From: Escherichia phage vB_EcoM_EC001
Reading direction: 5' to 3' (one strand)
Length of the DNA stretch: 64,000 nt
Sequence record: MN445185.1
Notes under the pieces: model-generated
What the model was told of the DNA's origin: nothing
Seen by the model: only the letters and a program-made list of their open reading frames with translations
Databases searched by the model: none
In this document: in pieces, positions 12,049-38,131 of the stretch
How the letters are laid out: each line of letters starts with the position of its first letter
How positions within the stretch are numbered: position 1 is the first letter of the stretch
Program-made: the position numbers and the translations under genes

Positions 12049-12588
12049 ATGGCAGACCGCTATCAGCCCGACCTAACACTGAGTTCAAAAGCGCTAGTCT
12101 TAGCGCTTATCAATCATGACAATAATCTGTCACTTACTGATAAAGAGATTGTGATTAGGGATATTGATGCGAACGCTTCACCAGACATCATCCCGAAGAA
12201 CACACAGGCAAGCGTGGCCAAAGCACGTAAGCCAAATGGGAAAACCGTGACAGTCTATTATGACCGGTTAAGTGCGTCTACCGTGCTAGACAGTTTTCAG
12301 CCGCTATTGGTGTCCTTAGACGGAACCGAAACGGACATTCAGCAAATTGCCAGTGTGATTAACGGTTACTGCGGTACAAACTTGTCAGCAGCAGACTTAC
12401 AGTCTGCGCCAATCGTGGTCAGCGACGATTTTACCCTGGTGAATATCACTGGCGATTCCCCAGCATGGCTTGGGACATTTATCGCAACCCTGTTTACCAA
12501 AAATGAGTACGTTCTTTCAACTGACACTGACACGGTGCTGTGTCTGGATGAGAACACTGTGCTCGTACTGACTGACGAGGAAGAGTAA
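12049..12588 (+). CDS. Hypothetical protein
   Basis: ATG 12049 with GGAGG SD; track TTG start 12031 lies in the terminator T-run. Confidence 0.6.
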   Translation: MADRYQPDLTLSSKALVLALINHDNNLSLTDKEIVIRDIDANASPDIIPKNTQASVAKARKPNGKTVTVYYDRLSASTVLDSFQPLLVSLDGTETDIQQIASVINGYCGTNLSAADLQSAPIVVSDDFTLVNITGDSPAWLGTFIATLFTKNEYVLSTDTDTVLCLDENTVLVLTDEEE

Positions 12589-21643: not shown

Positions 21644-22441
21644 ATGTCTTTTACTTCAAAACAGAATCTGCTAAAACTCATCAACGAAGAGAATAAGATA
21701 AGCCCACCGCTTACCTTTGACGATGTTGATATCGGACTGCCGGAGGTTGTGTCAGTAGACGGTCGTGATTCGGAGGTGGTACTAACCTCGAAAATGCGCG
21801 GTGATGAAGGTACGCAAGTGATTGTGGACTACCATCGTCGTCCATTAGAGGACTACCTTACAGGCGATGTTGCCTTTGGCGATGAAGATGTGCATACCAC
21901 GCACGACTTACTCGCGGCGATTAACGAGCGTTTTAATCTGTCTATCTTACCTGAGGATATCGAAGATAACCCCATTGAAGGACAGACGCACACAGTCGTT
22001 GCTGTTGAAACTTCCCACGAGTGGAGAAGTCAAGCGGTCATCGAGCTGAAACCTGCTACACCTCTGGCAGAAGTAATAACCAATACAGAGTTGAGCGGTC
22101 TTCTGTACCCGGATCACCAGGACATCCAGTTGGGTCAGGCGTATATCTATTCGCGCGACATCGATTGTAGCCACATCTCTCGTTTCCTGAGCCTCTTAGC
22201 GGTCGGTATCGAAGTAGATGACACGGCGTTAGCAATCGAACTCAACAAATGTGTTCCTGAGATTTGGGTGGCTGAAGATACCCCATCCCCGTATAACTTG
22301 CGTGGTGCTACTGTCGTATTCGACGGCGTACCTGCAGACTTACCGGGAGCAAATACGGCGTTCGCGAAAGTCGTGTCAGTGCAACTGACCGATAAATGTA
22401 CGAACTTCCAGGGCAGCCTCAACTTACACTTTAACAACTAG
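21644..22441 (+). CDS. Paralog-family protein 1 (putative fibre/receptor-binding protein)
   Basis: Shares the family N-terminal domain and a C-terminal LHFNN-type ending with downstream paralogs. Confidence 0.65.
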   Translation: MSFTSKQNLLKLINEENKISPPLTFDDVDIGLPEVVSVDGRDSEVVLTSKMRGDEGTQVIVDYHRRPLEDYLTGDVAFGDEDVHTTHDLLAAINERFNLSILPEDIEDNPIEGQTHTVVAVETSHEWRSQAVIELKPATPLAEVITNTELSGLLYPDHQDIQLGQAYIYSRDIDCSHISRFLSLLAVGIEVDDTALAIELNKCVPEIWVAEDTPSPYNLRGATVVFDGVPADLPGANTAFAKVVSVQLTDKCTNFQGSLNLHFNN

Positions 22442-22451
22442 GAGGGTATAG

Positions 22452-23294
22452 GTGTCTATTTACGATAAGCCCTCGAAAGAGATGTTGTTAGATGCTATTA
22501 ACCGACAGAACGGATTAACGGCCAATCCACTCACATGGGAGCAGGTTGCAACTGGCTTCCCTGAGTCTGTCCAAACGCCTGGCGCTGACCGGAATACACG
22601 TGTACTCTTATACGGGTTGAACGGCAAGGGCTACAAAGGCAACGTTACGCTCGAATACGACCGTATCGAAATGGAAATTCTGTTCAGGAACGTAATACCG
22701 GTAGTCGTTGCCGACCCGGTAAATAAACTCTCTGAGTTGTTGCCGTTTCTGAATGCGAAATACGGCTTGTCTTTAGTTGCCGATGATATCGTTGACCAGT
22801 CAGTAAAAGATTTGGGAGAAAGCTGGTTAATCGATGTGACTATTAAGCCCGGTTGCTTGGCCTGGCAAGGTGGTTTCCGTTTACGCTTTGCGAAGTTCTT
22901 CCCGAACCTGGCGGATGTGGTGACGGATGTTGACCTCAGCGCAATTATCGCACCGTTCGTGGTTGCTAGTAAACCGCAGGCTGAATATGTGGCGTATGGT
23001 TACGATTGGACTGAACTGCAAAAACAGTTCACTACCGATTGGGCTTACAACCGTGCAATCACTGCAGCGGATGTTGAGTTGTTGAATGAAGTGGTGCCAT
23101 TAAAGTTTGCATATGTGACGGGGGCGAATGCGCAACCTGAACAAATTGCACTCCAAGGTGCACGATTTATGGGGATAACTTCAGTCACACCGAACGATAG
23201 TTACAACCCCGATTATCAGCGTGTGGCGATTATCAAGCTAGCTGCGGACAGCAACTACGCCGGTAATCTCATCCTTCATTATCTCCCGATATAA
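22452..23294 (+). CDS. Paralog-family protein 2
   Basis: GTG start with GGAGGG SD; family N-terminal domain (DRNT..Y.R). Confidence 0.65.
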   Translation: MSIYDKPSKEMLLDAINRQNGLTANPLTWEQVATGFPESVQTPGADRNTRVLLYGLNGKGYKGNVTLEYDRIEMEILFRNVIPVVVADPVNKLSELLPFLNAKYGLSLVADDIVDQSVKDLGESWLIDVTIKPGCLAWQGGFRLRFAKFFPNLADVVTDVDLSAIIAPFVVASKPQAEYVAYGYDWTELQKQFTTDWAYNRAITAADVELLNEVVPLKFAYVTGANAQPEQIALQGARFMGITSVTPNDSYNPDYQRVAIIKLAADSNYAGNLILHYLPI

Positions 23295-23304
23295 GGATTT
23301 TGAC

Positions 23305-24150
23305 ATGCCACTTTTAGCCACAGCTGAAAAGATTATTATCGCGGAGGTTAACGTCGAAAACAATCTCGACTTAAAAGTCGAGGATGTTGTTTTTGGTGTC
23401 CCTGCGATTCCAACGTCTGACGAAGACTTGGCAAAAGCTAACGGTCACAACGCGATGGTGCGTATTCAGGCATTGGCCACGGCTAATGCTATCGGTGCCA
23501 CTACCGTGTACTACGATCGTGTTGACTTCGCAGACATGTTTACCGATCCGGACGGGATTCAACCTTTACGTGTTCCTGCACGTCTCGATGCTGTTTACCA
23601 GATGCATGACGTGGTCGGGTTAATTAACCAGTATTACGGTCTCAGCCTTAAACCTGCAGATGTGGTGAATACCGAAATCGACAGGAAGACATGGCGTGTG
23701 GATCTGATTGCCACGCCCTCTTCTTTAGGTTGGATAGGGCAACAACAGGTACAGCTGTTACCAGGCGATGCGTTGCTTCCTGCAAACTTCGAACCCTTAA
23801 CAGTGATGCCTTACGAGTATCCGTATTTCAACATCAAGGTCGGTCAAGGTGCAGTTTATTCGTATCCCTGGCGCTTTGATAATTTCGCGGAGGAATTTCA
23901 ACGACTAGGTGCTGCGATAACCACAGAACGTCTGGCACAGATTCTCAAAACGGTCACCGGTGATAACTGGACAACATACCGTAACCCTATCGACTTTAAC
24001 CTTCGTGAAGCCGTCGTCGTCTATAACGGGCGTAACAAAGCGGAATTACCAACCAACCCAGCAGTCGACAACGTGCTGATTGTGGAGCTGTCGTTGTACT
24101 GTCTGAATTTTGGCGGGCGTTTGTATTTGCATTACAACGACCCTGATTAA
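23305..24150 (+). CDS. Paralog-family protein 3
   Basis: AAGGA SD; ends LYLHYNDPD. Confidence 0.65.
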   Translation: MPLLATAEKIIIAEVNVENNLDLKVEDVVFGVPAIPTSDEDLAKANGHNAMVRIQALATANAIGATTVYYDRVDFADMFTDPDGIQPLRVPARLDAVYQMHDVVGLINQYYGLSLKPADVVNTEIDRKTWRVDLIATPSSLGWIGQQQVQLLPGDALLPANFEPLTVMPYEYPYFNIKVGQGAVYSYPWRFDNFAEEFQRLGAAITTERLAQILKTVTGDNWTTYRNPIDFNLREAVVVYNGRNKAELPTNPAVDNVLIVELSLYCLNFGGRLYLHYNDPD

Positions 24151-24171
24151 TCCTGAGTAAAGGAAGTAAGA

Positions 24172-25083
24172 ATGAAACCTTTAAACAAAACGTCCGATAA
24201 GCTGGTTCTGGATTTTATTAATGAGAAAAACCCAGACGCAGAACTGGAACTTTCTAAAATAACGCTCGGCACACCGACCCCTATTACCGATGAAGGTGCT
24301 GATCGCAATACCAGCATGACCCTGACTGCGAAAAAGAACTCCGGGTACATCGGTACTCAGGACGTGACTTATAATCGCCTGGAAGGCGGTGCGCTGTTCC
24401 GTAATGTAACCGCATACCTCGACGTTAAACTGCCGAAAACCACCACCGACCTGCTGACGACCCTGAACACCCAATACGGATTGAAGCTGACCGAAGACGA
24501 TATCGTTCCGGCGGCTATTCCGGAAAATACCAACCCGCCGCTGACTAACCCGAACGATCCGGACCCAGCACCGGTTGACCACGTCATTACCTTCAAAGAA
24601 GACTGCTACGCTTATCTGGGCAGCATCCCGGTTAAAATCGGTGCTAAGCCTCAGGTTGGTGAACGTCTGAGTCTGGTGGTAACACAAACCAAGCTCGACG
24701 GCTTGGTTTACCCAGATGGTCCAAGCGAAGCGAAGGGTCAGGGCTACATCTACTCTTACGGTGTAGACTGCACAGCAATCGCAGCATTCCTGAAAGTACA
24801 GGCGAAAGGTGTTATCGCTGGCGACTCTGCATTCCCGGTTGAGCTGAATAAAGTTGTGCCGGAACTGTGGGTTGCATCTGATGAGCCTGCGGATTATAAC
24901 CTGAAAGGCGCTAACGTGTTGTACGTTGGTTCTACTACTGACGATGGCACTGCTTCAGGCGACGAACCTAAGAAACCGGTTGAAGGTGCAAACACTGCTT
25001 ACAACCAGGTTCTGCTGCTGCAGCTGGATGACACTCTGTGCACCAACTTCCAGGGTATCATGTACCTGCACTTTAATGCCTAA
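24172..25083 (+). CDS. Paralog-family protein 4
   Basis: AAGGAAG SD; ends MYLHFNA. Confidence 0.65.
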   Translation: MKPLNKTSDKLVLDFINEKNPDAELELSKITLGTPTPITDEGADRNTSMTLTAKKNSGYIGTQDVTYNRLEGGALFRNVTAYLDVKLPKTTTDLLTTLNTQYGLKLTEDDIVPAAIPENTNPPLTNPNDPDPAPVDHVITFKEDCYAYLGSIPVKIGAKPQVGERLSLVVTQTKLDGLVYPDGPSEAKGQGYIYSYGVDCTAIAAFLKVQAKGVIAGDSAFPVELNKVVPELWVASDEPADYNLKGANVLYVGSTTDDGTASGDEPKKPVEGANTAYNQVLLLQLDDTLCTNFQGIMYLHFNA

Positions 25084-25096
25084 TTAGGCCTCGCTG

Positions 25097-25136
25097 GGAG
25101 GAGGAAATCCTCCTCCTGGCTACTCCTTTCTTTTTT
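25097..25136 (+). terminator. Putative terminator
   Basis: Stem ggaggagg / cctcctcc, T-run about 10 nt downstream. Confidence 0.5.
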
Positions 25137-25152
25137 GGCCGAGGAGGCTATT

Positions 25153-25992
25153 ATGGCTTTATATAGTCTGTCTCAGCGACAATATCTGTACGATGCGATT
25201 AATGCCGAAAACCCGGATGCTGTGCTACCGATGGGTTTAGACAATGCTATCATCGGCACGCCGAAAGCAATCACACCGACAGCAAGCGGTGCCAATACTG
25301 AGATTATCATTCGTGGTCGTCAAGGTCGTGGCTATATCGGTCCTCAGACGTTCCGTTATAAGCGCTTGTCGCTGAACGACTTATTTAAGAACATGACACC
25401 TCAGGTAACTGCACCGAATGCCTACGGTTGGTTGAACGTGGAGTCGAAACGTACTGCGTTTGCGCAGAACCTGAACGGTCGTTATGGATTAAACCTGGTT
25501 GCAGATGATATCCCAGAACAATACGTTTATCTGAACGTAAACAACACGATGCGTATTAACGCTAGCTGTATCCAATACACTGGCAGCATCACCTTTATGT
25601 CTATCCGGGGTAAGAATAGCCTCGAAGACCTCGTGGTAAACGACATCTTGTTGGCTTTGAACCACCCTGCAGCAGCAAGCACTGGTAAGAAATACATGGG
25701 CTTCTTGACGTACGGGGAAGACTTTACTGACGAAGTGCAGGTTATGGCCTCGTTTAAGAACGGGCGAATGGACGTAGGAAGTAACTTTGATTTGGGTTAC
25801 ACGTCCAATCTGATGGCCACATTGGTCGCACGTGGGGTACCGTCGTTTGATCCGACGAACTGCACAATTACCCGCTACAAAACGAGTGAGTTGGCGACCG
25901 CCAATAAAGCGTACGATAACGTATTGCTGATTACCGGCATTCAGAACGACCCGAAAGTAATCGGCGAGTGTATGTTGCACTACAACAACTAG
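25153..25992 (+). CDS. Paralog-family protein 5
   Basis: ATG 25153 with GAGGAGG SD; track used TTG 25135; ends MLHYNN. Confidence 0.65.
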   Translation: MALYSLSQRQYLYDAINAENPDAVLPMGLDNAIIGTPKAITPTASGANTEIIIRGRQGRGYIGPQTFRYKRLSLNDLFKNMTPQVTAPNAYGWLNVESKRTAFAQNLNGRYGLNLVADDIPEQYVYLNVNNTMRINASCIQYTGSITFMSIRGKNSLEDLVVNDILLALNHPAAASTGKKYMGFLTYGEDFTDEVQVMASFKNGRMDVGSNFDLGYTSNLMATLVARGVPSFDPTNCTITRYKTSELATANKAYDNVLLITGIQNDPKVIGECMLHYNN

Positions 25993-26002
25993 GAATTAGC
26001 GA

Positions 26003-26890
26003 ATGGCTATTTATCAACCTTCTAAAGACGTCCTGTTGGCAGCAGTGAACGCACAGAACTCGCTTGCTGTTAAGATGACTGACATCATCTGGTCCTCGCC
26101 AAAGGACATCCGTGGTACGGAGAAGGAAACGCTGACTAACCGTAACACGCAAATTAAAATTACGGCAGATGGGGTAACGGGCTCTACCTGGTCGGGTAAG
26201 AAAAATGTCTTCTACAACCGCATGAAAGTCGAAGACTTGTTAGTGCTGATCGGTGACACGTTGGCGATCGGCCCATCCAACGAAACCTTGTATGCGGCCA
26301 TTCCTGGACTGAACCAACGTTACGGTTTTGTTCTGGAAGAAGCTGACCTGCAGGACGCAGATATCGAATGGAACGGTGATAAGACCGAAGGAACTGTGCG
26401 CGTTGTTGCACATCCGGAGTCTATCGGTTGGGTTGGACAGGCGACATTTAAAGTCGTGAAAGGTGATGAGTCGTTAGTCTCTGCAGTCACCACTAACGTC
26501 CTGACCGGTCTGAAATACCCGAACGGTCAGATGGGTTCCGAAAATGTTACTGCGGTCATTGCAGAGGTTTATTCCTACCCGTACAACTTCACCAAATACC
26601 GTGATACTCTGCTGGCATACACGCCAGGTATTCTGTCCGGACAGCCGTTGACGGATATGGTTAACATGCTGAAATATATTACGGGTACGGCATGGGTAGC
26701 GACCACCTCCGCTTCCTACGGTTTGGCGGGTGCGGAGGTTATCAGCGTTGGTCTGAATGACCCTGTTGCAATGCCGACAAACGCGAAGTACAAGTATGCG
26801 CTGGTGTTGAAACTGCCTGTTACCTGTACCACCATCGTCGGAACGTTGTATCTCCAGTTCAACGATCTGGACGATCCAAGCGAGGTATAA
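26003..26890 (+). CDS. Paralog-family protein 6
   Basis: Family N-terminal domain; ends LQFNDLDDPSEV. Confidence 0.65.
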   Translation: MAIYQPSKDVLLAAVNAQNSLAVKMTDIIWSSPKDIRGTEKETLTNRNTQIKITADGVTGSTWSGKKNVFYNRMKVEDLLVLIGDTLAIGPSNETLYAAIPGLNQRYGFVLEEADLQDADIEWNGDKTEGTVRVVAHPESIGWVGQATFKVVKGDESLVSAVTTNVLTGLKYPNGQMGSENVTAVIAEVYSYPYNFTKYRDTLLAYTPGILSGQPLTDMVNMLKYITGTAWVATTSASYGLAGAEVISVGLNDPVAMPTNAKYKYALVLKLPVTCTTIVGTLYLQFNDLDDPSEV

Positions 26891-26893
26891 TTG

Positions 26894-27721
26894 ATGATCA
26901 ACTATGCTAAGCCGTCAAACGAGTTGGTCTTTGACCTCATTAACCGGGATAACCCAAACCTACCTATTAAAGCGTCGCCGGCAAACTGCTACGTGGAGAA
27001 AGTGACGCAGGTTCCCGTTAATGCAGCTTCCAACAACCGCAATACGTCGGCACGCTTGCGCGGTATTCAGGGTTCCGGATTTCGAGACGCAATCACCGTT
27101 TACTACGACCGTGTGAACTTAGCGCGGTTATTGCCGTGGGGTCCTTCTGTTCAGGCGCAGTTCGTCACGTTTGACGCGCCCAACCTCCACTCAGCCTTTT
27201 CGGTGCTCTTGGATACTTACGGAGTAAACTTCTCTGCAATCGATATCTATAACCTCCCACTGGCGGGTCCCAATACCCCAAATTACACCAATACACAGAA
27301 CATCGTAGCGCTATCGACATCTCCGGCTTATATCGGTTCTGCGACGTTGCGTTATAACCGTGGTTTACCGGTACTAGATACTTCGGTGAAAACGGATGTC
27401 TTGAATGCGATTCAAGAGCCTATTTCACCGTCTCTCGGTAAGAAGTGTATTGATTTGTTGACGTACGGTATTGACTTTACCGCGTATAAAAACCTACTGA
27501 CAGTAGATGCTTCTGGCCTACCGCAGTGGGCTGGTTTGCGTAAGGTGTTGGATGACCTGGGTATTCCGAACTACGCGGGGCCACTGAACAGTAACACCGT
27601 TCAGGATGTGCCGACATCCACCGCTCAGTTCGCTAACAAATCGTACGACCGCGTGGTTGTCCAAACGGGTATCGATGAGGAAGGCGTGAAAGGCGTGGCG
27701 TACTACCACTATAACAGCTAA
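26894..27721 (+). CDS. Paralog-family protein 7
   Basis: GAGG SD; ends YYHYNS. Confidence 0.65.
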   Translation: MINYAKPSNELVFDLINRDNPNLPIKASPANCYVEKVTQVPVNAASNNRNTSARLRGIQGSGFRDAITVYYDRVNLARLLPWGPSVQAQFVTFDAPNLHSAFSVLLDTYGVNFSAIDIYNLPLAGPNTPNYTNTQNIVALSTSPAYIGSATLRYNRGLPVLDTSVKTDVLNAIQEPISPSLGKKCIDLLTYGIDFTAYKNLLTVDASGLPQWAGLRKVLDDLGIPNYAGPLNSNTVQDVPTSTAQFANKSYDRVVVQTGIDEEGVKGVAYYHYNS

Positions 27722-27726
27722 GTGTA

Positions 27727-27752
27727 GGGGCTCTTCGGAGCCCCCTCTTTTG
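27727..27752 (+). terminator. Rho-independent terminator
   Basis: Stem ggggctc / gagcccc with ttcg loop, then a T-rich tract. Confidence 0.6.
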
Positions 27753-27768
27753 GCGATGCGGAGTCCCT

Positions 27769-29181
27769 ATGCTATTTTACTCGAAGGAGTCGGCACTGCT
27801 TGTATACGACCAAGTCAATCGGGATAACCCTGATTTAGTTGTTAAGCTGACGCCGGCTATCGCTGCTTTAACCAGTGGCCCAACTTCAGTTACGTTAAAC
27901 CAACGTAACACCAAAGCTGTTTTCACCGGGTATCCAGGGACAGGTGTACAAGGTAATGTTACCGTGTACTACGACCGGATTAACCTGGCCTCTTTATTTA
28001 ATTTTGTGCCGACTGTGGCTATCAAAGATACAGTCTTAACGGTACGAGACGCGCTACCTGCAATAAACAACGCTTTGGGGCTTACATTAGTTGCTTCTGA
28101 TTTGCAGTCACCTGACGCAAGTTTACCTAAACCGAGCGCTTCGCCGCAGACGTTGAAATTAAATATCTCAGGTAATTGCCCTGCGTTTACAGGCAGCTTA
28201 ACGATACGTTATACCGTCCCGAGCGGTGCAATTTACCCCGATTCTGGACCTGGCCCTAAAACGTTGCTGCAAGGTAACACTATCGCGGGTTATTTCGGAA
28301 CAACCACAATTGCAGAGTTGTTTACACACTCTCAACTTCTTAATGCCACTATATCGGCCGGTGCGTTACCACCGGTACATTCTGGTGCCGAAGGTTGGTA
28401 CAAGTTCTTTTACCAGGGTAGGGTTATTTACCTTCCGATCAGTCCTGTCGCTAGCTCCATCTCCTGGAATACGTTATATACAAACGGACTCGTTTACGGA
28501 ACAGATGATAATGGTAAATACCCTGCGGCGACGCCCGTTAACCAGGGACGCATCATTAGCTTTACAGGCGCAGACAACAAAAGGTTTTACTTCCGTGTTC
28601 GTCTACCTAGTGCCGGGAAAGACCCATACGTCAGCGGCACCCCAACTGCCGCTGAGTTAGCAGGTAGTGAGTTTGAGATGTTCAACTTTCTGTATAATGG
28701 AACGTGGGACAAACCGATTAACAGTTACTGGACGCTGTTCTGTTTATTGAAAGATACACTGAAGACCAACGTCGCCAATCATCGCATGGCGACGTTGTCT
28801 GGAGCAAGTTGGACAAACTTAGAAAAATCATCGAGTGCGGGCAACTACTACTGGTTCCCGGTGCTGGAGTTGGTGGATAAGTCCACAGTTACCTTGGGTT
28901 TAGAAGATATCCATGGTGCGGTAGATTACAGTCTCCAACCGTGCAGCGTGTCCGCAGAAAACACATTTAGTCTCAAGCCGTTAGTGCTCGGTAATCCGGA
29001 TACTACCGATTTCGAACCGGTAGTTGTTACTTCAGAAAACAGTTTCGCACTGCATCCGCCTGCTTTAATGCTGCCGAAGACAGTCGACTTCCAACCTATT
29101 GCGGCTACCGCTGAAATGTATACGCCCCCTGACAAGACAACGTTAACGTCTCTTAACGGTGAACTGGACGGCTTTAAGTAG
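27769..29181 (+). CDS. Fibre-module protein A1 (family N-domain, GPGP motif, C-terminal NGELDGF)
   Basis: GGAG SD; paralog of 31138-32634. Confidence 0.65.
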   Translation: MLFYSKESALLVYDQVNRDNPDLVVKLTPAIAALTSGPTSVTLNQRNTKAVFTGYPGTGVQGNVTVYYDRINLASLFNFVPTVAIKDTVLTVRDALPAINNALGLTLVASDLQSPDASLPKPSASPQTLKLNISGNCPAFTGSLTIRYTVPSGAIYPDSGPGPKTLLQGNTIAGYFGTTTIAELFTHSQLLNATISAGALPPVHSGAEGWYKFFYQGRVIYLPISPVASSISWNTLYTNGLVYGTDDNGKYPAATPVNQGRIISFTGADNKRFYFRVRLPSAGKDPYVSGTPTAAELAGSEFEMFNFLYNGTWDKPINSYWTLFCLLKDTLKTNVANHRMATLSGASWTNLEKSSSAGNYYWFPVLELVDKSTVTLGLEDIHGAVDYSLQPCSVSAENTFSLKPLVLGNPDTTDFEPVVVTSENSFALHPPALMLPKTVDFQPIAATAEMYTPPDKTTLTSLNGELDGFK

Positions 29182-29192
29182 AGGTATCATCT

Positions 29193-30191
29193 ATGTCTTT
29201 TACTTTGCGTTGGAAAAATCCAAACGTAATCCCTACGGTAGTAAAAATCTACCGTGACGTTAAAGATATCACACCAAGCGCTTTGCCTGAACCGATTGCA
29301 ACGCTCTCAAATGGCGAGACAGAATGGCGTGATGCCACCGCCAAACCAGGCGCAATCTATTATTACCTTCTAACGGTAACCGCCAACGGTAAAACAGTAG
29401 CGTCGTCTAGCCAGAAATATACTGTTGAGGTAAAACGCGGGATAGGCCCAATGACTATTCTAAACGGTAACGACCGTTTAGGGTTTATGGGTGAGGTTCC
29501 TTACGACGAACAATGGCTTCCGTCGCAAATGCCACCTGCATTTTTGGCGATGTTCCCTAATCTATTAACCGATCGCGTGGCGTTGTATAAATTTACCCGA
29601 AACGGGAAGATCTATTACATGCTATCTAACACGTCGCAGTTCCCGAATACGCCTGTGGACTGGGCTTCCCTCTATCAAGCTGGTTTAGTCTATGGTACGG
29701 GCGATGCTGGCCCAGAGAACGGCCATGGAACGCTACCGGCCACTCCACAAGACGCTAAGATAGTCCACAAAGGGGATACGTACATCATGCGTCTTCCTCG
29801 CGGCCTGACGATGTCTAGCGAGCCTCCTGCGTATCCTTTCGTAGCTGACTATAATGGGAAAACCCATGATGAAATCGCTTCTCTAACCAACCCGTGTGAG
29901 TATAACGATTTACTTTACACGATGGTTAACGAGGTGCCGTGGAAACAGCGTTGGGCTAACTGGGCAACGAACAGTTATACTTTTCTGGGGCAGGGTACTT
30001 TGGGAACCTCGGCAACGTATTTCGGCGGTGGTGTTCTCTGTATGGAACACGACACCACGGAAGACCGTGTGCTCCATCGTGGTATTTTTAACAATGCCGG
30101 CGGAACACCCGTATCCGCGATTCAGCGTATAAACTATTTATCACCCACCACGAAAGGGCGTTACTACCCTATCTTTGAACTGGTCGAGTAA
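29193..30191 (+). CDS. Fibre-module protein B1 (beta-sandwich-like N-terminus)
   Basis: GAGG SD; paralog of 32647-33636. Confidence 0.65.
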   Translation: MSFTLRWKNPNVIPTVVKIYRDVKDITPSALPEPIATLSNGETEWRDATAKPGAIYYYLLTVTANGKTVASSSQKYTVEVKRGIGPMTILNGNDRLGFMGEVPYDEQWLPSQMPPAFLAMFPNLLTDRVALYKFTRNGKIYYMLSNTSQFPNTPVDWASLYQAGLVYGTGDAGPENGHGTLPATPQDAKIVHKGDTYIMRLPRGLTMSSEPPAYPFVADYNGKTHDEIASLTNPCEYNDLLYTMVNEVPWKQRWANWATNSYTFLGQGTLGTSATYFGGGVLCMEHDTTEDRVLHRGIFNNAGGTPVSAIQRINYLSPTTKGRYYPIFELVE

Positions 30192-30200
30192 GGGGCAGTC

Positions 30201-31124
30201 ATGACTATACGGTTAAGCTGGCCGTCCCAAGCCAGCAAAGGTCTTACCGCGATTGAAATCTACCGCAAGGAAGGTTGGAACGCAACAATCGACGTTTACA
30301 ATCCAGGCGCACCCCACGCAACTTTATCGGGCAACGCGGTAGAGTTCGTAGATAATATCGATACCCTGACGAAGAACACAACCTATCGTTATTGGGTAGC
30401 TGCTGTGAAGGACAGTGAACGACTTATCGGCAATCCGATTACGCAAGGATTCTATCCGGACACCGGGCCGGGTCCGCAAACTATTTTGCGTGGTGACTGG
30501 GCTTCAGGTTATTTCGGTACAGTACCGAATACAGAGTTCTTTAATACTGCCGAGTTAAAACTCATGTTAACTGCGCAGCAGGGAAACATGTTTGTCTACG
30601 ACCCTCAGGAATGGCACAAGTTTATTTTCCGTGGGAGAATTGTCTTCTTCCCAGCGACGATGCATTCGAAAACCAACTCGGTACAAATGGCGTATCAGTA
30701 CGGTATGATGTACGGGACCGATGATGTCGGAAGTATTGTTCCGCAGGGAGCCACAGCGACTAAACAAGATTGTAAGGTCACGAAGGATGGTCGTACGTAC
30801 CGTATCCGATTACCTTACGCAGTCCCGTACGACGCTGTTCTCTCAGGACAGGATTACAACAACGGTGAATGGCGAAACACAATGGGCCGTTTGTATCCTG
30901 TCGCTGCACAGTTCGCAGCCCTCGGTCTTGGTGCGATTGACTCACTTGCAAGACAAGGCGCGACTGCGCAGCCGAATGAGTCAGGTGCCGCTGTATTAGC
31001 TCCTTTGTGGAGCAACAATATATTCGCTTATGCGTATGGCACCGTGCCTATGGGGATTAGTAACACCGCAGGTGTCGGGAACTCGGCCACGATATTCTTT
31101 GCTTTTGAATTAGTCTTACCGTAA
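30201..31124 (+). CDS. Fibre-module protein C1
   Basis: AGGGG SD; paralog of 33639-34538; shares the DTGPGPQ..GYFG motif with A-type proteins. Confidence 0.65.
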   Translation: MTIRLSWPSQASKGLTAIEIYRKEGWNATIDVYNPGAPHATLSGNAVEFVDNIDTLTKNTTYRYWVAAVKDSERLIGNPITQGFYPDTGPGPQTILRGDWASGYFGTVPNTEFFNTAELKLMLTAQQGNMFVYDPQEWHKFIFRGRIVFFPATMHSKTNSVQMAYQYGMMYGTDDVGSIVPQGATATKQDCKVTKDGRTYRIRLPYAVPYDAVLSGQDYNNGEWRNTMGRLYPVAAQFAALGLGAIDSLARQGATAQPNESGAAVLAPLWSNNIFAYAYGTVPMGISNTAGVGNSATIFFAFELVLP

Positions 31125-31137
31125 CGGAGTAAAAGCC

Positions 31138-32634
31138 ATGGGGTTGTATACAGAACCTTCAATGGAACTGCTCTGCCAACAAATTGTGCGTGACAATCCC
31201 GGTTTAGCAGGAAAAATCACCGCTGACTCCATTGGGGTCAGGGGTGTTCCTGTTGCGAGAAACGTTAACGGACGAAACACACAGATTACGTTGGTAGGAA
31301 AACCCGGTAAAGGATTTGCTGGGGAAATAACGGTATATTACGACCGGTTGAATCTGGCCAGTCTGTTCAAGTCTGGCCCGAATATGGTGAGTATTCCACG
31401 TAGCGCACAAACCCATGCGGAAGCGTTACCGGCGTTCAATGAATTGAACGGGTTGAACTTAACCGCGAGTGATATCACCAGTCCAAACGTTGCATTAATG
31501 AAATACGCTACGCCGGAAACTGTAACTCTGACGGCGCACGCTAACTCCTTGTGCTATACCGGGTCATGCAAGATGACCTATGTTTACGAACCGATTGCGA
31601 TGTATCCGAAGTCGGGTCCTGGGCCAAAAGGATTAATGGCTGGTAATGAGTTATACGGATTCTTTGGGCTGGTAAGCGCGGAAGAGTTATTCACATCTGA
31701 TGAAATGGTGTATGCACTCTATAACGGCACCAACTGGCCTAACCGCTACGCTATCAAGTGGCTCAAATTCTTTCTGAATGGGGCGGTAGTGTTTGTTCCG
31801 ACCCGTGCGATTTGCAACGTTACCTGGGCAGACCTGTACAACAATGGTGCAATATTTGATTCCGGAGACGCAGGACCTCGCCCGAAGTCGACTTACACAC
31901 CTGTCGATGTTGAACAGTTGAAATACATGGTAAAACGGGATGATGAAGGAACGCATTATTTCAGAATGTCTATCCCGTATTACACCGAGAACGCCGCCGC
32001 GCCTGATTGGAGTAAACCGCCGTCAATCACCTCTATCCTGTCACTGACCAGCAAATTGGGGTCGGTGAACGTATATGGGGAGTGGGGAACTCTTAGCACG
32101 ACTGATGCTAACTTCCTGGATTACGTGTGGTTACGACACCAGTTCGGTGCCGACCAAGCGTATTACCAGTCTATCAGTGGGAGCTATCGTTCATACACCT
32201 ACATCTACACCTCTTCTGGCTTTTGGCCAATCCTGGAGATGTTTGATGTTGCCAATGAACCTGTGCCGTTGATTGACGAAGGTGCAGAACTGACATGGGC
32301 ACCGTCCGTGGTTACTCTGACGGACATCTACCAAAATGAATCGCTTCGTGTGGTGCCTATTACGGAAACCTCCGCTGCAGCGAATCCACGTCCGTTAGTT
32401 TTCAACACCGACAACACCGAAACTGCCACCCCTGCCTGGCTGCGGGAAGCGTCATCAGACTCACCACGTCCTCTGCTTGCCACGACGGACAATGATGAAC
32501 GTGCATATTCCGTCGCGGTAACAGGCATGGCTAGCGTTAAGATTAGACCGATTATTCTCACGACTGACCAAATCGCCCAACCTTCAAAAATTACTCTGGG
32601 CGATACTAACGGTGAGTTGGATGGATTCCAATAA
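31138..32634 (+). CDS. Fibre-module protein A2
   Basis: GGAG SD; ends NGELDGFQ. Confidence 0.65.
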   Translation: MGLYTEPSMELLCQQIVRDNPGLAGKITADSIGVRGVPVARNVNGRNTQITLVGKPGKGFAGEITVYYDRLNLASLFKSGPNMVSIPRSAQTHAEALPAFNELNGLNLTASDITSPNVALMKYATPETVTLTAHANSLCYTGSCKMTYVYEPIAMYPKSGPGPKGLMAGNELYGFFGLVSAEELFTSDEMVYALYNGTNWPNRYAIKWLKFFLNGAVVFVPTRAICNVTWADLYNNGAIFDSGDAGPRPKSTYTPVDVEQLKYMVKRDDEGTHYFRMSIPYYTENAAAPDWSKPPSITSILSLTSKLGSVNVYGEWGTLSTTDANFLDYVWLRHQFGADQAYYQSISGSYRSYTYIYTSSGFWPILEMFDVANEPVPLIDEGAELTWAPSVVTLTDIYQNESLRVVPITETSAAANPRPLVFNTDNTETATPAWLREASSDSPRPLLATTDNDERAYSVAVTGMASVKIRPIILTTDQIAQPSKITLGDTNGELDGFQ

Positions 32635-32646
32635 GAGGTAACGACA

Positions 32647-33636
32647 ATGGCTTTTACAATTCGTTGGACGAACAATAACCCTGGGGCTTCGACCGTGAAG
32701 CTGTACCGCGACACCAAACCTCTGGTGCGTACAGCATTACCTGAACCTCTGGCAACGTTCACTAACGGGGAAACTGAGTATACTGACCGAACAGCGATAC
32801 TGGGGACAACGTATTACTACATGACCACTGTGACAGTGGGAAGCCGAACACTGTTCAGTCCGCAGAAATCAATTCTGATTCAGAACCGTCGCGGTATCGG
32901 CATCGTGGCTCCACAGTACGGTGATGACCGCTTTGCGTATTACGGGTACGTGGCGTACGGTGAATTACCTAGCGCGGGTGATTATCCGCCAGGGTTTATG
33001 GCCCTTTCTGGATATGACCCAACTGTTAAGCCGGGCTTGATGAAGTTCCAGCTAGACGGTAAAATTCTGTATCTGTTTAGTGGTCTTCGTGTGAACGGCA
33101 ACACACCGTATAGCCGTGATGCGATTTATAACGCGTGTTTGCTGTACGGTGTGGCGGGACCTGGTCCGGAAGGCGGTCATGGCGATTTACCTGACGTTGA
33201 CCAGGCTGGGGAGTTTACGTGGTTGGGTGACCGCTATCGGATGCGCCTGCTGCGCGGTTTAACACTCGACAGTGAAAGCCCGGTCATGACACTCGACGCA
33301 CAGTGGAACGGTAAACTCCATGACGAGTCGCCGTATACTGCCGATAGCGAATACAACCGACTCATCTATGGGATAAGTAGCTGGTTCCCAGAAAAGAAAA
33401 AAGTGATGTCCCTGATAAAGTGGTCGAACACCAGCATATTCGGAAGTGGATCGCTGGTGGCAGGCCGTGGGGCGCATTGTCAGGAGTTTGACCCAGACAG
33501 TAAGTTGGGGCTGACGCGCGGATGGGCGGCGGCGGATTCCACTGATACCGTGGATAACCTCCAGCGTATACAACATGTCCCTGGTGCGACCGTGGGCGGT
33601 ATTTGGATTCCAGTAATCGAGCTTATCGAGGATTAA
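32647..33636 (+). CDS. Fibre-module protein B2
   Basis: GAGG SD. Confidence 0.65.
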   Translation: MAFTIRWTNNNPGASTVKLYRDTKPLVRTALPEPLATFTNGETEYTDRTAILGTTYYYMTTVTVGSRTLFSPQKSILIQNRRGIGIVAPQYGDDRFAYYGYVAYGELPSAGDYPPGFMALSGYDPTVKPGLMKFQLDGKILYLFSGLRVNGNTPYSRDAIYNACLLYGVAGPGPEGGHGDLPDVDQAGEFTWLGDRYRMRLLRGLTLDSESPVMTLDAQWNGKLHDESPYTADSEYNRLIYGISSWFPEKKKVMSLIKWSNTSIFGSGSLVAGRGAHCQEFDPDSKLGLTRGWAAADSTDTVDNLQRIQHVPGATVGGIWIPVIELIED

Positions 33637-33638
33637 TC

Positions 33639-34538
33639 ATGCCTATTACATTACACTTTGCACAACGGAAGCCACAGGCGCTCGATAACATCGAAATCTA
33701 TCGCAAGACGCCGGGCAACGCCACCATTGATGTTAATGCACCGGGAACGCCTCTGGCAACCCTTCCGGGTGACGCTACATCGTACGAAGACAACGCTGTG
33801 GAAAACAACACCACTTACCGTTATTGGATAGCTGCGGTTAAAGACGGTGAGCGTGTCTTCAACACCCCTACCGCCCAAGGGTTCTTTTTAGACACCGGGC
33901 CTGGCCCCCAGAAGCTGTTATACGGCGACTGGCACGCTGGATACTTTGGAACAGTAACGCCAGCAGAGTTATTCACTAACACGGAACTGAACAGCCTCGT
34001 GGTGAATATGTTCAGTTCCGCCGTTGGTGCCTGGCATAAGTTCATTTACAAAAACCGTATTCTGTTTATGTCCGATAACTCGATAATATACGCTAGCCCG
34101 CAGTTCATTTATAACCAGGGGCTGATGTACGGCCAGGATGGCAACGGATATGTACCGGGCTGGGCTACTGCACGTAACCAACGCCGCACGGTGACGAAAA
34201 ACGGTTACGAATACGTGGTGCGCTTGCCGTATTTGTTCGACTACAAATTCTGGACGTCTTACGTTGGAAGCGGTAACACTGAGTTGTATCTCGACGGTGA
34301 GTGGTTTAACACCTTCGCGCGCCTGTACAACTACAGTGGGCAGTTTCCGCGCTTTGACGACATTCCGGTCGGTCCAATCGATTCGGTTACTGCCCAACAA
34401 TCTGCATTCTTTGCGGCTATGAATAACACGTCCAGTCAGTGGTACAACCGTCCACCTTACCCTGAGTCGCCGTCGTGGAGTAACTACGGTACCACTACAA
34501 TACGCTCCATTGCGGTACTTGAACTCGTTCTGCCTTAA
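33639..34538 (+). CDS. Fibre-module protein C2
   Basis: ATG 33639 with GAGGA SD; track start 33603 overlaps B2. Confidence 0.65.
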   Translation: MPITLHFAQRKPQALDNIEIYRKTPGNATIDVNAPGTPLATLPGDATSYEDNAVENNTTYRYWIAAVKDGERVFNTPTAQGFFLDTGPGPQKLLYGDWHAGYFGTVTPAELFTNTELNSLVVNMFSSAVGAWHKFIYKNRILFMSDNSIIYASPQFIYNQGLMYGQDGNGYVPGWATARNQRRTVTKNGYEYVVRLPYLFDYKFWTSYVGSGNTELYLDGEWFNTFARLYNYSGQFPRFDDIPVGPIDSVTAQQSAFFAAMNNTSSQWYNRPPYPESPSWSNYGTTTIRSIAVLELVLP

Positions 34539-34586
34539 CAGGAGACTTCATGGGGTTGTATAGCGCACTTTACCATAACAGCTAAA

Positions 34587-34617
34587 AATAGGCCCTTCGG
34601 GGCCTATTTTCTTTTTT
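34587..34617 (+). terminator. Rho-independent terminator
   Basis: Stem aataggccc / gggcctatt with ttcg loop, then a T-run. Confidence 0.75.
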
Positions 34618-34628
34618 AGGACGTTGCA

Positions 34629-35948
34629 ATGATCAACTATAACAAACCTGTCATGCAACTGGTTTGGGATCAGATTAATCGTGATAACCCGCAGCTCAAG
34701 AAACCGCTCAACGCAACCAACGTGGCGTTATTACAAGGTCCTTTAACCAATGCCTTGCGCGATGGCCGCAACAGCCGTATCGTGGTAAACGGATTACAGG
34801 GTGGTGGTTACAGCGGTAAGATGGACATCTACTACGACCGCTTAAACCTTTCGCAGTATTTTAAAGGCGTCAGCGTACCGGTTAAAGTACCTTATCGGGC
34901 GACGGTCTACCGCGACATCATCGACCGAATTTCCGCAGCTTGTGGGTTGGTGCTTACTGCTGACGATTTAACGTATCCTGACAGCCAGTTTGCAATGATC
35001 ACTGTGGCAACGGGCGATCGGACGGTGGCGATTAAATCGGATAACCCCGCATTCACGGGTTACATTCCTATTAGCTTTATTCGTGAAGAGCCCAGCTTCG
35101 CCGACTTGTACCACATCACCGAAACTGGGGCTTGGGAACCCATGGATGTTTACAGCACGGTCTATCGACTCGACTGGAGCATGTACACCCAACAGATAAT
35201 CAATATCCCAATGGGTACCCCGCTGCGACTAAACAGTAACTCGTACATGACCCAGTTTATCGCGGCGCTGTCGGCATGGTCGGGCATCCCGTTCACTATC
35301 GGTAATGCTGCTACTGATAACCCGTATGACCTCTATGGGTATGTCGCTACACGCAATAACAACCCAGGCTTAGACCCTGATATGCGTGGGGAGTACAAAT
35401 ACTGCGTGAAGTTGACGCCGCCTGAGGATATGGGTAATCTCCGCCGTCCGTTCTTCTTGCACTTTGGTCCGAAAAATAACGTGGCCTATTTGGCGCAGGA
35501 AGAGGACGTCGAACGTTATGCGCGTTACATGAGGTTCCGGGAAACCAGCCCAAATTCGATGAGCGTCACGTTGTATCAAAACGAGTACGTGTTGACTCGG
35601 GCAGAATCGCCTGAAACAGCGGATGATTTAACGGGTTCCCCGTATGGCACTCGATACTGTACCGGGAGTATTCGACGGCTGATGCAACACGCGTTTCCGA
35701 CCGAAGAGATGTTCCAAGAAAGTATTGCTAACCGGCGTCGGGTACTGTACCACACTGCTTACACCACCACGACATCAGCTACTACTTACCAGGGACTATA
35801 CCGTAACGGATACCAATCCAAACAAATGACGAGCCTCTACTCGAATTACTGTAACTATTTCATCTATTACGACCCAAGCAAAGGCGGCTATATGGTCTAC
35901 AGTCCATATAGCAAAACTGCCCCGGTCCCTTGGTATCCAGCGCTATAG
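34629..35948 (+). CDS. Paralog-family protein (A-type N-domain, distinct C-terminal module)
   Basis: N-terminus MINYNKP..INRDNP as in 26894; C-terminal YYD..Y.K.AP.PW shared with 35963. Confidence 0.65.
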   Translation: MINYNKPVMQLVWDQINRDNPQLKKPLNATNVALLQGPLTNALRDGRNSRIVVNGLQGGGYSGKMDIYYDRLNLSQYFKGVSVPVKVPYRATVYRDIIDRISAACGLVLTADDLTYPDSQFAMITVATGDRTVAIKSDNPAFTGYIPISFIREEPSFADLYHITETGAWEPMDVYSTVYRLDWSMYTQQIINIPMGTPLRLNSNSYMTQFIAALSAWSGIPFTIGNAATDNPYDLYGYVATRNNNPGLDPDMRGEYKYCVKLTPPEDMGNLRRPFFLHFGPKNNVAYLAQEEDVERYARYMRFRETSPNSMSVTLYQNEYVLTRAESPETADDLTGSPYGTRYCTGSIRRLMQHAFPTEEMFQESIANRRRVLYHTAYTTTTSATTYQGLYRNGYQSKQMTSLYSNYCNYFIYYDPSKGGYMVYSPYSKTAPVPWYPAL

Positions 35949-35962
35949 ACTAAGGTGTCACC

Positions 35963-38131
35963 ATGTCATACACTCCCGATTTAGTGGCGACCGTGATTCG
36001 GTCGCTCAACCGTAAAAACGCGGTCGCCAAAGCAGTAGACCCCGCTAACGTACGCCTGGTGTCCGTGGCGCATCGTGACGAAAAAACCCTAGACGTCACA
36101 CTGACAGGGGGTCCGGGGTATTCAAGTTACGGTCAAATTACGGCCCAAGTCACGAAGCAAAATATTGCTGATTATTTCGCCAAGGTTAAGTTGGATGCCA
36201 TTCCCACTTGTGCGTCCATCCACGAACTGTTGCCGCATTTAGACACTCTACTAGGGATTACCTTTTTAACCGACGACTTTGAAGACCTGCCTATCACTTG
36301 GACAAACAATGCTGCGCGCGTCACGTTCCAGGCGAAACAGACAAGTCTTATCTGGTACGGCAGCCAAACGCTAGATGTGATAAACGGTGACGTGGATATC
36401 AACACTGTCTACACTGTTACCAATATCATTCTCACGCTAAAGGCTGCGAATAAACAGCAGTGGATTAACTTCTACTCTAATGCAACCAAACGGATCGTGG
36501 ATCTTGATAAAGTCGATGTCAGCGCCCCGATGTCCCCGGAGGATATAGGCCAAACCTCTGCGTATAACAGCGTCGTAGCATTGACCGCTAGACCGGGGAG
36601 CGGGATGTTTGGAACGAAGTATGTGTTCTTCTCACGTAACAAACTCGAGACATATGCAGGCAAAACCACATACGTCCCGGATGATTTCACCGGTAGCCTG
36701 CACGATGCTCTGGCCATCGAGACACTCGGCATTCGGAGCGTTTTTGATGTAAACGAAATTGCTCCTGTAGAGAACCTGGCAGGCGAGTGGCCAAGACAAG
36801 TGCAATTGGCACCCGTAGAGGGTTCGTACAAAGTCATGGGCAACGCCACGTTGAATGTGGCACGCTATCAAGATAACGAGCAAACCCTTAACCTGAACTA
36901 CACAACTACGTCGCAACTTTCGGACAGCTACTGGGCCACAACGTTGATCAACCATGCGGCGTGCGGGCGTTTGTTTGTTAACGTGACCGTAGATGCAGGG
37001 GCTTTCGTTTATCGCGACAGCAACCTGAAACCGACGTTCGTTATCGACGAATTGCCGCAAATTGGCGAGGTGGTTTGGAACTTCGTTAACCGGGGAACCA
37101 TTCTTGGTCGTGGTGGTTCTGGTATGGTCTACTCTATGCCTGCGAACACATCAGCGGACGGAGCTGACGCAATCCACATTAGCGATACCTTCCGTGGCAA
37201 AGTCACCATCGAAAACTACGGCACCATCGCCGGTGGTGGGGGTGGGGGCGACTACTATGCGTTTAGCACCACCAAGATCGGTGGAGCTGGTGGTGCGCCT
37301 CTCGGGCCAGGCGCGGCGGTGCCCAGCGGCACCAATAACCGTAACGGCTTAGCTGGGTCCCGTGACAAAGGCGGTGCTACCCAGTTAGTCGTCGAGCAAT
37401 TTACCGGCTACCAGAGTCGCTACTATGGCGGTCCGGGTGGGGATTGGGGCCAGCCGGGACGATATACAGCGTTCGAGCAATGGAACACCCCGGCTACCGG
37501 CTCGCCAGTCTATGTCTACGGTCGTGAAGACGGGATGTCATGGACTCGCCCTGGGATGGCAGGCGAAGCTGTCGGTGGGAATAAAAGTATCGTCAACTGG
37601 GTATCCGTCGGAACGGTGAAACCGAATGTTACCGACGAGTACCAAGAGTTCCTCGACTACCTCGCAGTTTTAGATGCCAATCGACTGGCCAGTGCGGATG
37701 GGATAGATAAAGTCACCGACCCAACCAAGCCTGTAGTTGTGGAGTTCTTAGGTACGATTATTTCAGGTACGCTGTTCAAAAAGCAAAACATACCCGGCGG
37801 TTTGGTGGGAACACCATACGGCGATGCTATAGCCAATTTACCGAGCACCACATTGTTTGGTATCATGGCACACAGTGTATCTGAGTTTGATATTGTGCAC
37901 GACACTTGGCGTTACAACCGTGCGGTAATGTTCACGCTAAAACCCGCGCCTACCGGGACGATTAACCTCGCTGTGGAACGCAACCGGGTGAAATCGGCTA
38001 CCAGTAGTGCACCGGTGGAGAAGTTCTATGTCGATCGCTTCGTGTATTACGATGCGTATCTCGGTAAGATGATGGAATGTAATCCGTATACCAAATCCGC
38101 CCCTAAACCGTGGGTGCGGCCAAAGAAATAG
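35963..38131 (+). CDS. Paralog-family protein with Gly-rich region (722 aa)
   Basis: AAGGTG SD; family N-domain; GGGGGDYY..GGAGGAPLGPG tract. Confidence 0.65.
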   Translation: MSYTPDLVATVIRSLNRKNAVAKAVDPANVRLVSVAHRDEKTLDVTLTGGPGYSSYGQITAQVTKQNIADYFAKVKLDAIPTCASIHELLPHLDTLLGITFLTDDFEDLPITWTNNAARVTFQAKQTSLIWYGSQTLDVINGDVDINTVYTVTNIILTLKAANKQQWINFYSNATKRIVDLDKVDVSAPMSPEDIGQTSAYNSVVALTARPGSGMFGTKYVFFSRNKLETYAGKTTYVPDDFTGSLHDALAIETLGIRSVFDVNEIAPVENLAGEWPRQVQLAPVEGSYKVMGNATLNVARYQDNEQTLNLNYTTTSQLSDSYWATTLINHAACGRLFVNVTVDAGAFVYRDSNLKPTFVIDELPQIGEVVWNFVNRGTILGRGGSGMVYSMPANTSADGADAIHISDTFRGKVTIENYGTIAGGGGGGDYYAFSTTKIGGAGGAPLGPGAAVPSGTNNRNGLAGSRDKGGATQLVVEQFTGYQSRYYGGPGGDWGQPGRYTAFEQWNTPATGSPVYVYGREDGMSWTRPGMAGEAVGGNKSIVNWVSVGTVKPNVTDEYQEFLDYLAVLDANRLASADGIDKVTDPTKPVVVEFLGTIISGTLFKKQNIPGGLVGTPYGDAIANLPSTTLFGIMAHSVSEFDIVHDTWRYNRAVMFTLKPAPTGTINLAVERNRVKSATSSAPVEKFYVDRFVYYDAYLGKMMECNPYTKSAPKPWVRPKK

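Follow-up and report, generated by a model that had tools for sequence, protein, structure and literature searches.

The closest described relatives of the locus analysed here come from phages SPN3US, Goslar and phiKZ. In the Salmonella jumbo phage SPN3US, gp83, gp138-154, gp160 and gp237 constitute 'paralog family B' (Thomas et al. 2016; Ali et al. 2017; PMC10052503), published in 2016-17 and followed by a 2023 Viruses paper (PMC10052503). These papers present one PSI-BLAST-defined family of head proteins of unknown function, and sub-classes, lectin-like, FN3 or Gp38 modules and a C-terminal motif are not mentioned in them. For phage Goslar, AlphaFold 3 predicts that the shared domain of the family, Pfam DUF7941 (PF25613), is a head-to-tail polymerisation module, purified gp22 was seen by negative-stain EM to form filaments hundreds of nm long, and a host-recognition 'fibre cloud' was proposed for DUF7941 (bioRxiv 10.64898/2026.04.21.720040). 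In phiKZ, gp127 was located by cryo-EM in the peripheral, outer part of the baseplate (Nat Commun 2026, PMC13250141).

The window, that is the whole stretch of 64,000 nucleotides analysed from Escherichia phage vB_EcoM_EC001 (MN445185.1), is approximately 97-98% identical to SPN3US. Fifteen consecutive plus-strand ORFs (g1-g15), the number given in the initial annotation, fill 98% of positions 21644-38131, with gaps of 2-90 nt; identity to SPN3US across this array is 98.5% and 97.2%. The array belongs to the DUF7941 family of chimallivirus-type jumbo phages and is already known as SPN3US family B: its genes correspond to gp138-150, gp154 and gp155. Order and strand of g1-g13, g14 and the outlying g19 are the same as those of the SPN3US orthologs, with identities of about 97-99% for g1-g13 and g14 and about 89% for g19. 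Seven full-length DUF7941 genes are followed by two strict A-B-C triplets and then by two longer genes, one of which (g15) carries a T-even Gp38-type adhesin domain. For this array, the present analysis documents membership of the family, the architecture and predicted folds of its proteins, variation in its cassettes and the scars of deletions, and revises the best start codons of three genes (g5, ATG 25153; g7, ATG 26894; g13, ATG 33639).

Against the Pfam DUF7941 HMM, whose curated gathering score is 27 bits, 13 proteins of the window scored 47.7-292 bits. The match covers the full length of g1-g7 (E 7e-68 to 6e-87) and the N-terminal 150 aa or so of g8, g11, g14 and g15 (E 2e-24 to 3e-31), the other two members lying outside the array at 41033-41581 (E 2e-12) and 12049-12588; g9, g10, g12 and g13 do not match this HMM. 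All-vs-all BLASTP of the array proteins agrees with Pfam, with homology far above chance. The shared domain is the N-terminal half of DUF7941, approximately 150 aa long (AF2 model); it is globular and folds like phiKZ gp127, a member of solved structure. An N-terminal domain of about 70 aa had initially been attributed to twelve array genes, with three lacking it; the sharing itself holds, but the domain is about twice that size, is carried by 11 of the 15 genes according to Pfam, and is missing from four.

The full-length genes, on the plus strand like all features given below, are g1 (21644-22441; gp138; class s1, 265 aa; E 7e-68), g2 (22452-23294; gp139; s2, 280 aa; E 5.5e-71), g3 (23305-24150; gp140; s3, 281 aa; E 5e-79), g4 (24172-25083; gp141; s4, 303 aa; E 7e-85), g5 (25153-25992; gp142; s5, 279 aa; E 2e-79), g6 (26003-26890; gp143; s6, 295 aa; E 4e-81) and g7 (26894-27721; gp144; s7, 275 aa; E 6e-87). 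Translation of g2 starts at a GTG preceded by AGGAGG, and the ORF of g5 opens at TTG 25135, before the preferred ATG. All seven end in an LH[YF]N-type sequence, in line with the seven LH[YF]NN-type endings first noted, lack a variable distal domain and have conserved one-to-one counterparts across genera. The best match in the window to the filament-forming Goslar gp22 is g4 (BLASTP E 7e-11), which also shows a weak sequence match to phiKZ gp127 (PDB 9xqd; E 0.012). In SPN3US MS, gp138 is assigned to the head, gp141 (about 746 PSM) is among the two most abundant family members and gp143 is the third. A GC-rich hairpin followed by a T-rich tract (27727-27744), terminator-like by consensus match, separates this short-paralog block from the triplets.

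The first triplet comprises g8 (A-type; 27769-29181; gp145), g9 (B-type; 29193-30191; gp146) and g10 (C-type; 30201-31124; gp147), and the second comprises g11 (A-type; 31138-32634; gp148; 498 aa), g12 (B-type; 32647-33636; gp149) and g13 (C-type; 33639-34538; gp150; 299 aa). Corresponding proteins match each other by BLASTP at E 2e-58 (g11 and g8), 8e-60 (g12 and g9) and 9e-60 (g13 and g10). The start retained for g13 agrees with the SPN3US annotation and leaves this gene clear of g12. In g8, the DUF7941 N-terminal domain (residues 1-150) precedes a putative C-type-lectin-like domain (approx. 155-375) and a repeat-containing tail (380-470) which AF2 predicts to be disordered; g11 has the N-terminal domain as well (E 7e-30). 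The four genes without this anchor encode an FN3-like N-terminus (AF2, Foldseek), in keeping with the beta-sandwich-like N-terminus first proposed for the B and C types, and then a putative C-type-lectin-like domain. Neither g9 (phrog_1062) nor g12 has a Pfam hit, and the central domain of g9 is related to those of the A and C types (BLASTP matches: g8, g11, g10, g12). The central domain of g10, a protein without DUF7941 domain, bears a GPGP...GYFG motif, and the homologs found for it belong to related jumbo phages only. Structural matches suggesting a C-type-lectin-like/FGE-like fold include Legionella Lcl, TvpA, the Bdellovibrio fibre tip Bd2740, TaqVP and Mtd.

Both A-type proteins end in NGELDGF. 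This ending had initially been reported for three genes; g19 (41033-41581) ends in NGELGGF. A motif of this type, K.[DN]LS..NGEL.GF, is conserved across genera: 27 of 28 A-types and every gp160-like protein have it at their C-terminus, and in g19 it directly follows the N-terminal domain, i.e. it occupies the linker position. NGELDGF corresponds to the linker of full-length members only by position, and the hhalign comparison of the two is not significant (probability 0.2%, E 0.21). The A tail is disordered and undocked in the AF2 monomer model, and it docks on no domain in a linker-fused A+B+C model either (pTM 0.37).

Comparison with related phages, which the initial annotation had suggested for detecting cassette variation, revealed that the number of triplets ranges from 1 to 4. 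The window has two and SPN3US three: 3447 bp of SPN3US, encoding gp151-153, have been deleted, as megablast breakpoints and the junction sequence indicate. The scar (34550-34585) joins the first six codons of a third A-type gene to '...LYHNS*', and an imperfect 9-bp repeat (ATAGCGCAC/ATAGCGTAC) lies at the junction. A strong hairpin with a T-run (34585-34610), also found in SPN3US, separates the triplets from g14. Divergence is faster in triplet proteins than in short ones, with 70-75% versus 84-92% identity to SPAsTU. Judged from these sequences, faster divergence, the range of triplet numbers and deletion scars are consistent with a role in host interaction.

Of the longer genes, g14 (34629-35948; gp154; 439 aa) combines a DUF7941 N-terminal domain (E 3e-25) with an extra C-terminal domain also present in g15, phrog_1037 matching residues 1-287 and phrog_6409 residues 312-436. 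The YYD..Y.K.AP.PW ending recognized in two genes is borne out: this common domain (BLASTP E 1e-6) ends in AP.PW. In g15 (35963-38131; gp155; 722 aa; Pfam DUF7941 and GP38 E 9e-19), two tandem DUF7941 N-terminal domains (1-166 and 175-316; second iE 2.7e-6) are followed by the Gp38-type region (approx. 360-555) and then by the domain common to g14. The Gp38 match (PF05268) scores 68.6 bits for a cut-off of 25 over residues 362-553 and their glycine-rich motifs; this region can be aligned with the corresponding motifs of S16 gp38 (PDB 6f45), but with high compositional bias, and g15 matches phrog_2056, 'tail fiber protein; host specificity'. Despite its two family domains, its ortholog gp155 is omitted from the SPN3US family B listing. 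Outside the array, g19 (gp160; 182 aa) consists of the N-terminal domain and a linker, without C-terminal domain, and its ortholog is highly abundant in SPN3US (about 583 PSM). The member at 12049-12588 (gp122; Pfam E 1.5e-18, local HMM E 1.5e-17) is an N-terminal domain only, directly upstream of the tail genes gp123 and gp124.

Virion mass spectrometry had been put forward as a check on the array, and published SPN3US MS detects every ortholog of its proteins in virions (97-99% identical, in another phage). CsCl-purified tailless SPN3US heads keep gp138-155 and gp160 with normalised heads/virion ratios of 0.9-1.7, on a par with the major capsid protein, whereas ratios are below 0.07 for tail proteins and 0.004-0.013 for the fibre candidates gp168-170, a drop of more than 50-fold. 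This retention argues against a purely baseplate-anchored fibre, and it led the SPN3US authors to propose an internal 'head ejection?' role. Since gp155 co-purifies with tailless heads (ratio 0.89), it fits poorly as a tail-fibre tip. By contrast, gp122 and gp237 act as tail-side proteins in SPN3US, gp122 being represented by 7-8 PSM in whole virions but by none in heads. In Goslar, no DUF7941 density is seen on the capsid at 3.6 A, nor on the baseplate. Published positions conflict, SPN3US MS pointing to the head or neck, and phiKZ cryo-EM together with the Goslar model to the outer baseplate.

The explanation that we favour for the whole, with moderate confidence, is that DUF7941 proteins act as sticky adhesive filaments. 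The N-terminal domain of approximately 150 aa would be a docking module by which subunits string head-to-tail into flexible hetero-filaments, g4 and g19 providing the bulk; in SPN3US as in Goslar, the family members found in greatest abundance belong to their two architecture classes (full-length, and N-terminal domain plus linker). We infer that the window proteins polymerise and that NGELDGF is a docking motif. The A-types g8 and g11 would carry a lectin-like domain inserted between N-terminal domain and docking motif, g15 would bring its Gp38-type adhesin domain to the filament, and the B and C proteins, with FN3 and lectin-like domains, would join each A as a co-inherited cassette. Such filaments, presumably external and attached either at the head or neck or at the baseplate, would widen the capture radius of the virion and bind host surface structures, SPN3US being flagellum-dependent. 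The formation of sticky filaments by DUF7941 proteins is probable. A more specific proposal strikes us as rather unlikely: triplets would be exchangeable adhesin cassettes in which each A is inserted in the filament by its N-terminal domain on one side and by NGELDGF on the other, so that different lectin-like binders are strung together and 1-4 triplets tune host capture, the filaments sitting on the head or neck rather than the baseplate and capturing flagella, like phiCbK head filaments or 7-7-1 capsid fibres. Head or neck attachment would reconcile the head MS data with external adhesin domains.

Two of the competing readings start from the association with heads. The family could be packaged inside the capsid as cargo, ejection proteins or internal scaffold, a role first suggested for the abundant gp141, gp143 and gp160: all orthologs co-purify stoichiometrically with tailless DNA-filled heads in two CsCl gradients, SPN3US heads contain unexplained protein mass, high-resolution maps display no ordered external density for the family, and the authors' label reads 'Head ejection?'. 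We nevertheless hold it to be improbable, as the only member placed by structure, phiKZ gp127, lies outside, at the baseplate; Goslar gp22 filaments reach hundreds of nm; and extracellular binding modules such as the FN3, C-type-lectin-like and Gp38-adhesin domains would serve no obvious purpose in a capsid interior. Moreover, family B is absent from the list of SPN3US prohead-protease substrates, and the major proteins of mottled (immature) capsids are only gp75, gp53 and gp54. Alternatively, the proteins might decorate the capsid or neck externally in a mainly structural or colloidal capacity (Hoc-like stabilization, anti-aggregation, environmental adherence) rather than for specific host recognition. 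Hoc-like decoration proteins typically contain Ig/FN3-like and lectin-like domains, and such domains are present here, the short paralogs are highly conserved and SPN3US MS places the family with heads; yet the Gp38-type adhesin domain of g15, the fast evolution and variable copy number of triplets, and the lack of ordered decoration by the family on Goslar or phiKZ capsids make this quite unlikely.

Even less probable, in our opinion, is the classical array of multiple fibres or tailspikes proposed at first, taken here to mean independent receptor-binding proteins fixed to the baseplate by a shared N-terminus, with variable distal domains setting host range. Part of that proposal stands: the orthologs are virion proteins in SPN3US MS, adhesin-like modules are present, cassettes vary, and the Goslar preprint arrives independently at a proposed function in host recognition. 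The conserved N-terminus with varied C-termini, the contact of the phiKZ gp127 N-terminal domain with the baseplate, the Gp38-like domain of g15 and the tail-side gp122 and gp237 also speak for it. However, the shared domain does not resemble a baseplate or tailspike anchor and is reported to be a polymerisation module, and on published data the orthologs, found in tailless heads, stay when the tail is lost, unlike gp168-170 and unlike what is expected of a CBA120- or G7C-type array. Furthermore, a variable distal domain is missing from seven of the 15 genes (g1-g7), which are conserved one-to-one across genera, four have no anchor, and the copies of gp141 and gp160, estimated in the hundreds, outnumber the baseplate sites by far. 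In Pfam and PHROG, the array gave no tailspike, pectate-lyase or fibre match outside the Gp38-like region of g15, and its AF2 models are globular alpha/beta and FN3 structures, among which no beta-helix, tailspike, trimeric or classical fibre fold was found.

This family may be the largest paralog family known from one phage genome ('potentially the largest' according to the SPN3US authors) and represents roughly a quarter of SPN3US virion protein species (21/83 by their count). If the adhesive-filament explanation is true, these jumbo phages would possess a host-capture device distinct from tail fibres, a point relevant to engineering the host range of biocontrol phages of Salmonella, E. coli and Erwinia. 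Our additions to the published record are modest: a sub-classification of the family, its lectin-like, FN3 and Gp38 modules, a docking-type motif conserved at the C-terminus, the variable number of triplets with the scars of their deletion, and the explicit conflict between two literatures without mutual citation.

Among known systems, the locus may be compared with that of Goslar, which has the same Pfam domain, a full-length protein similar to g4 (gp22) and an N-terminal domain plus linker protein similar to g19 (gp23), the latter two being of similar size and both adjoining an endolysin gene. In both phages, some members consist of the N-terminal domain followed by binding domains, but accessory domains differ (carbohydrate-binding, glycoside hydrolase and LRR in Goslar; C-type-lectin-like, FN3 and Gp38-like in the window), and Goslar has 10 scattered members with no A-B-C triplets reported. 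In the Goslar preprint, the filaments are assigned to the baseplate, and the head data from SPN3US are left undiscussed (bioRxiv 10.64898/2026.04.21.720040). phiKZ has only about three members versus 13 in the window, and its gp127 occupies a defined site on the outer baseplate, at the end of the gp139 band; a homolog of gp139/Goslar gp32 was not found in the window. T-even Gp38 resembles g15 in its glycine-rich-motif region, but in T-even phages it is a small protein in its own right, located where the long tail fibre ends, whereas the corresponding domain of g15 lies within a 722-aa protein, behind two DUF7941 domains. As for the lectin-like modules, the closest known proteins are receptor-binding or variable proteins of C-type-lectin fold, namely Bordetella phage Mtd, TvpA, TaqVP, the Bdellovibrio MAT fibre tips and Legionella Lcl.

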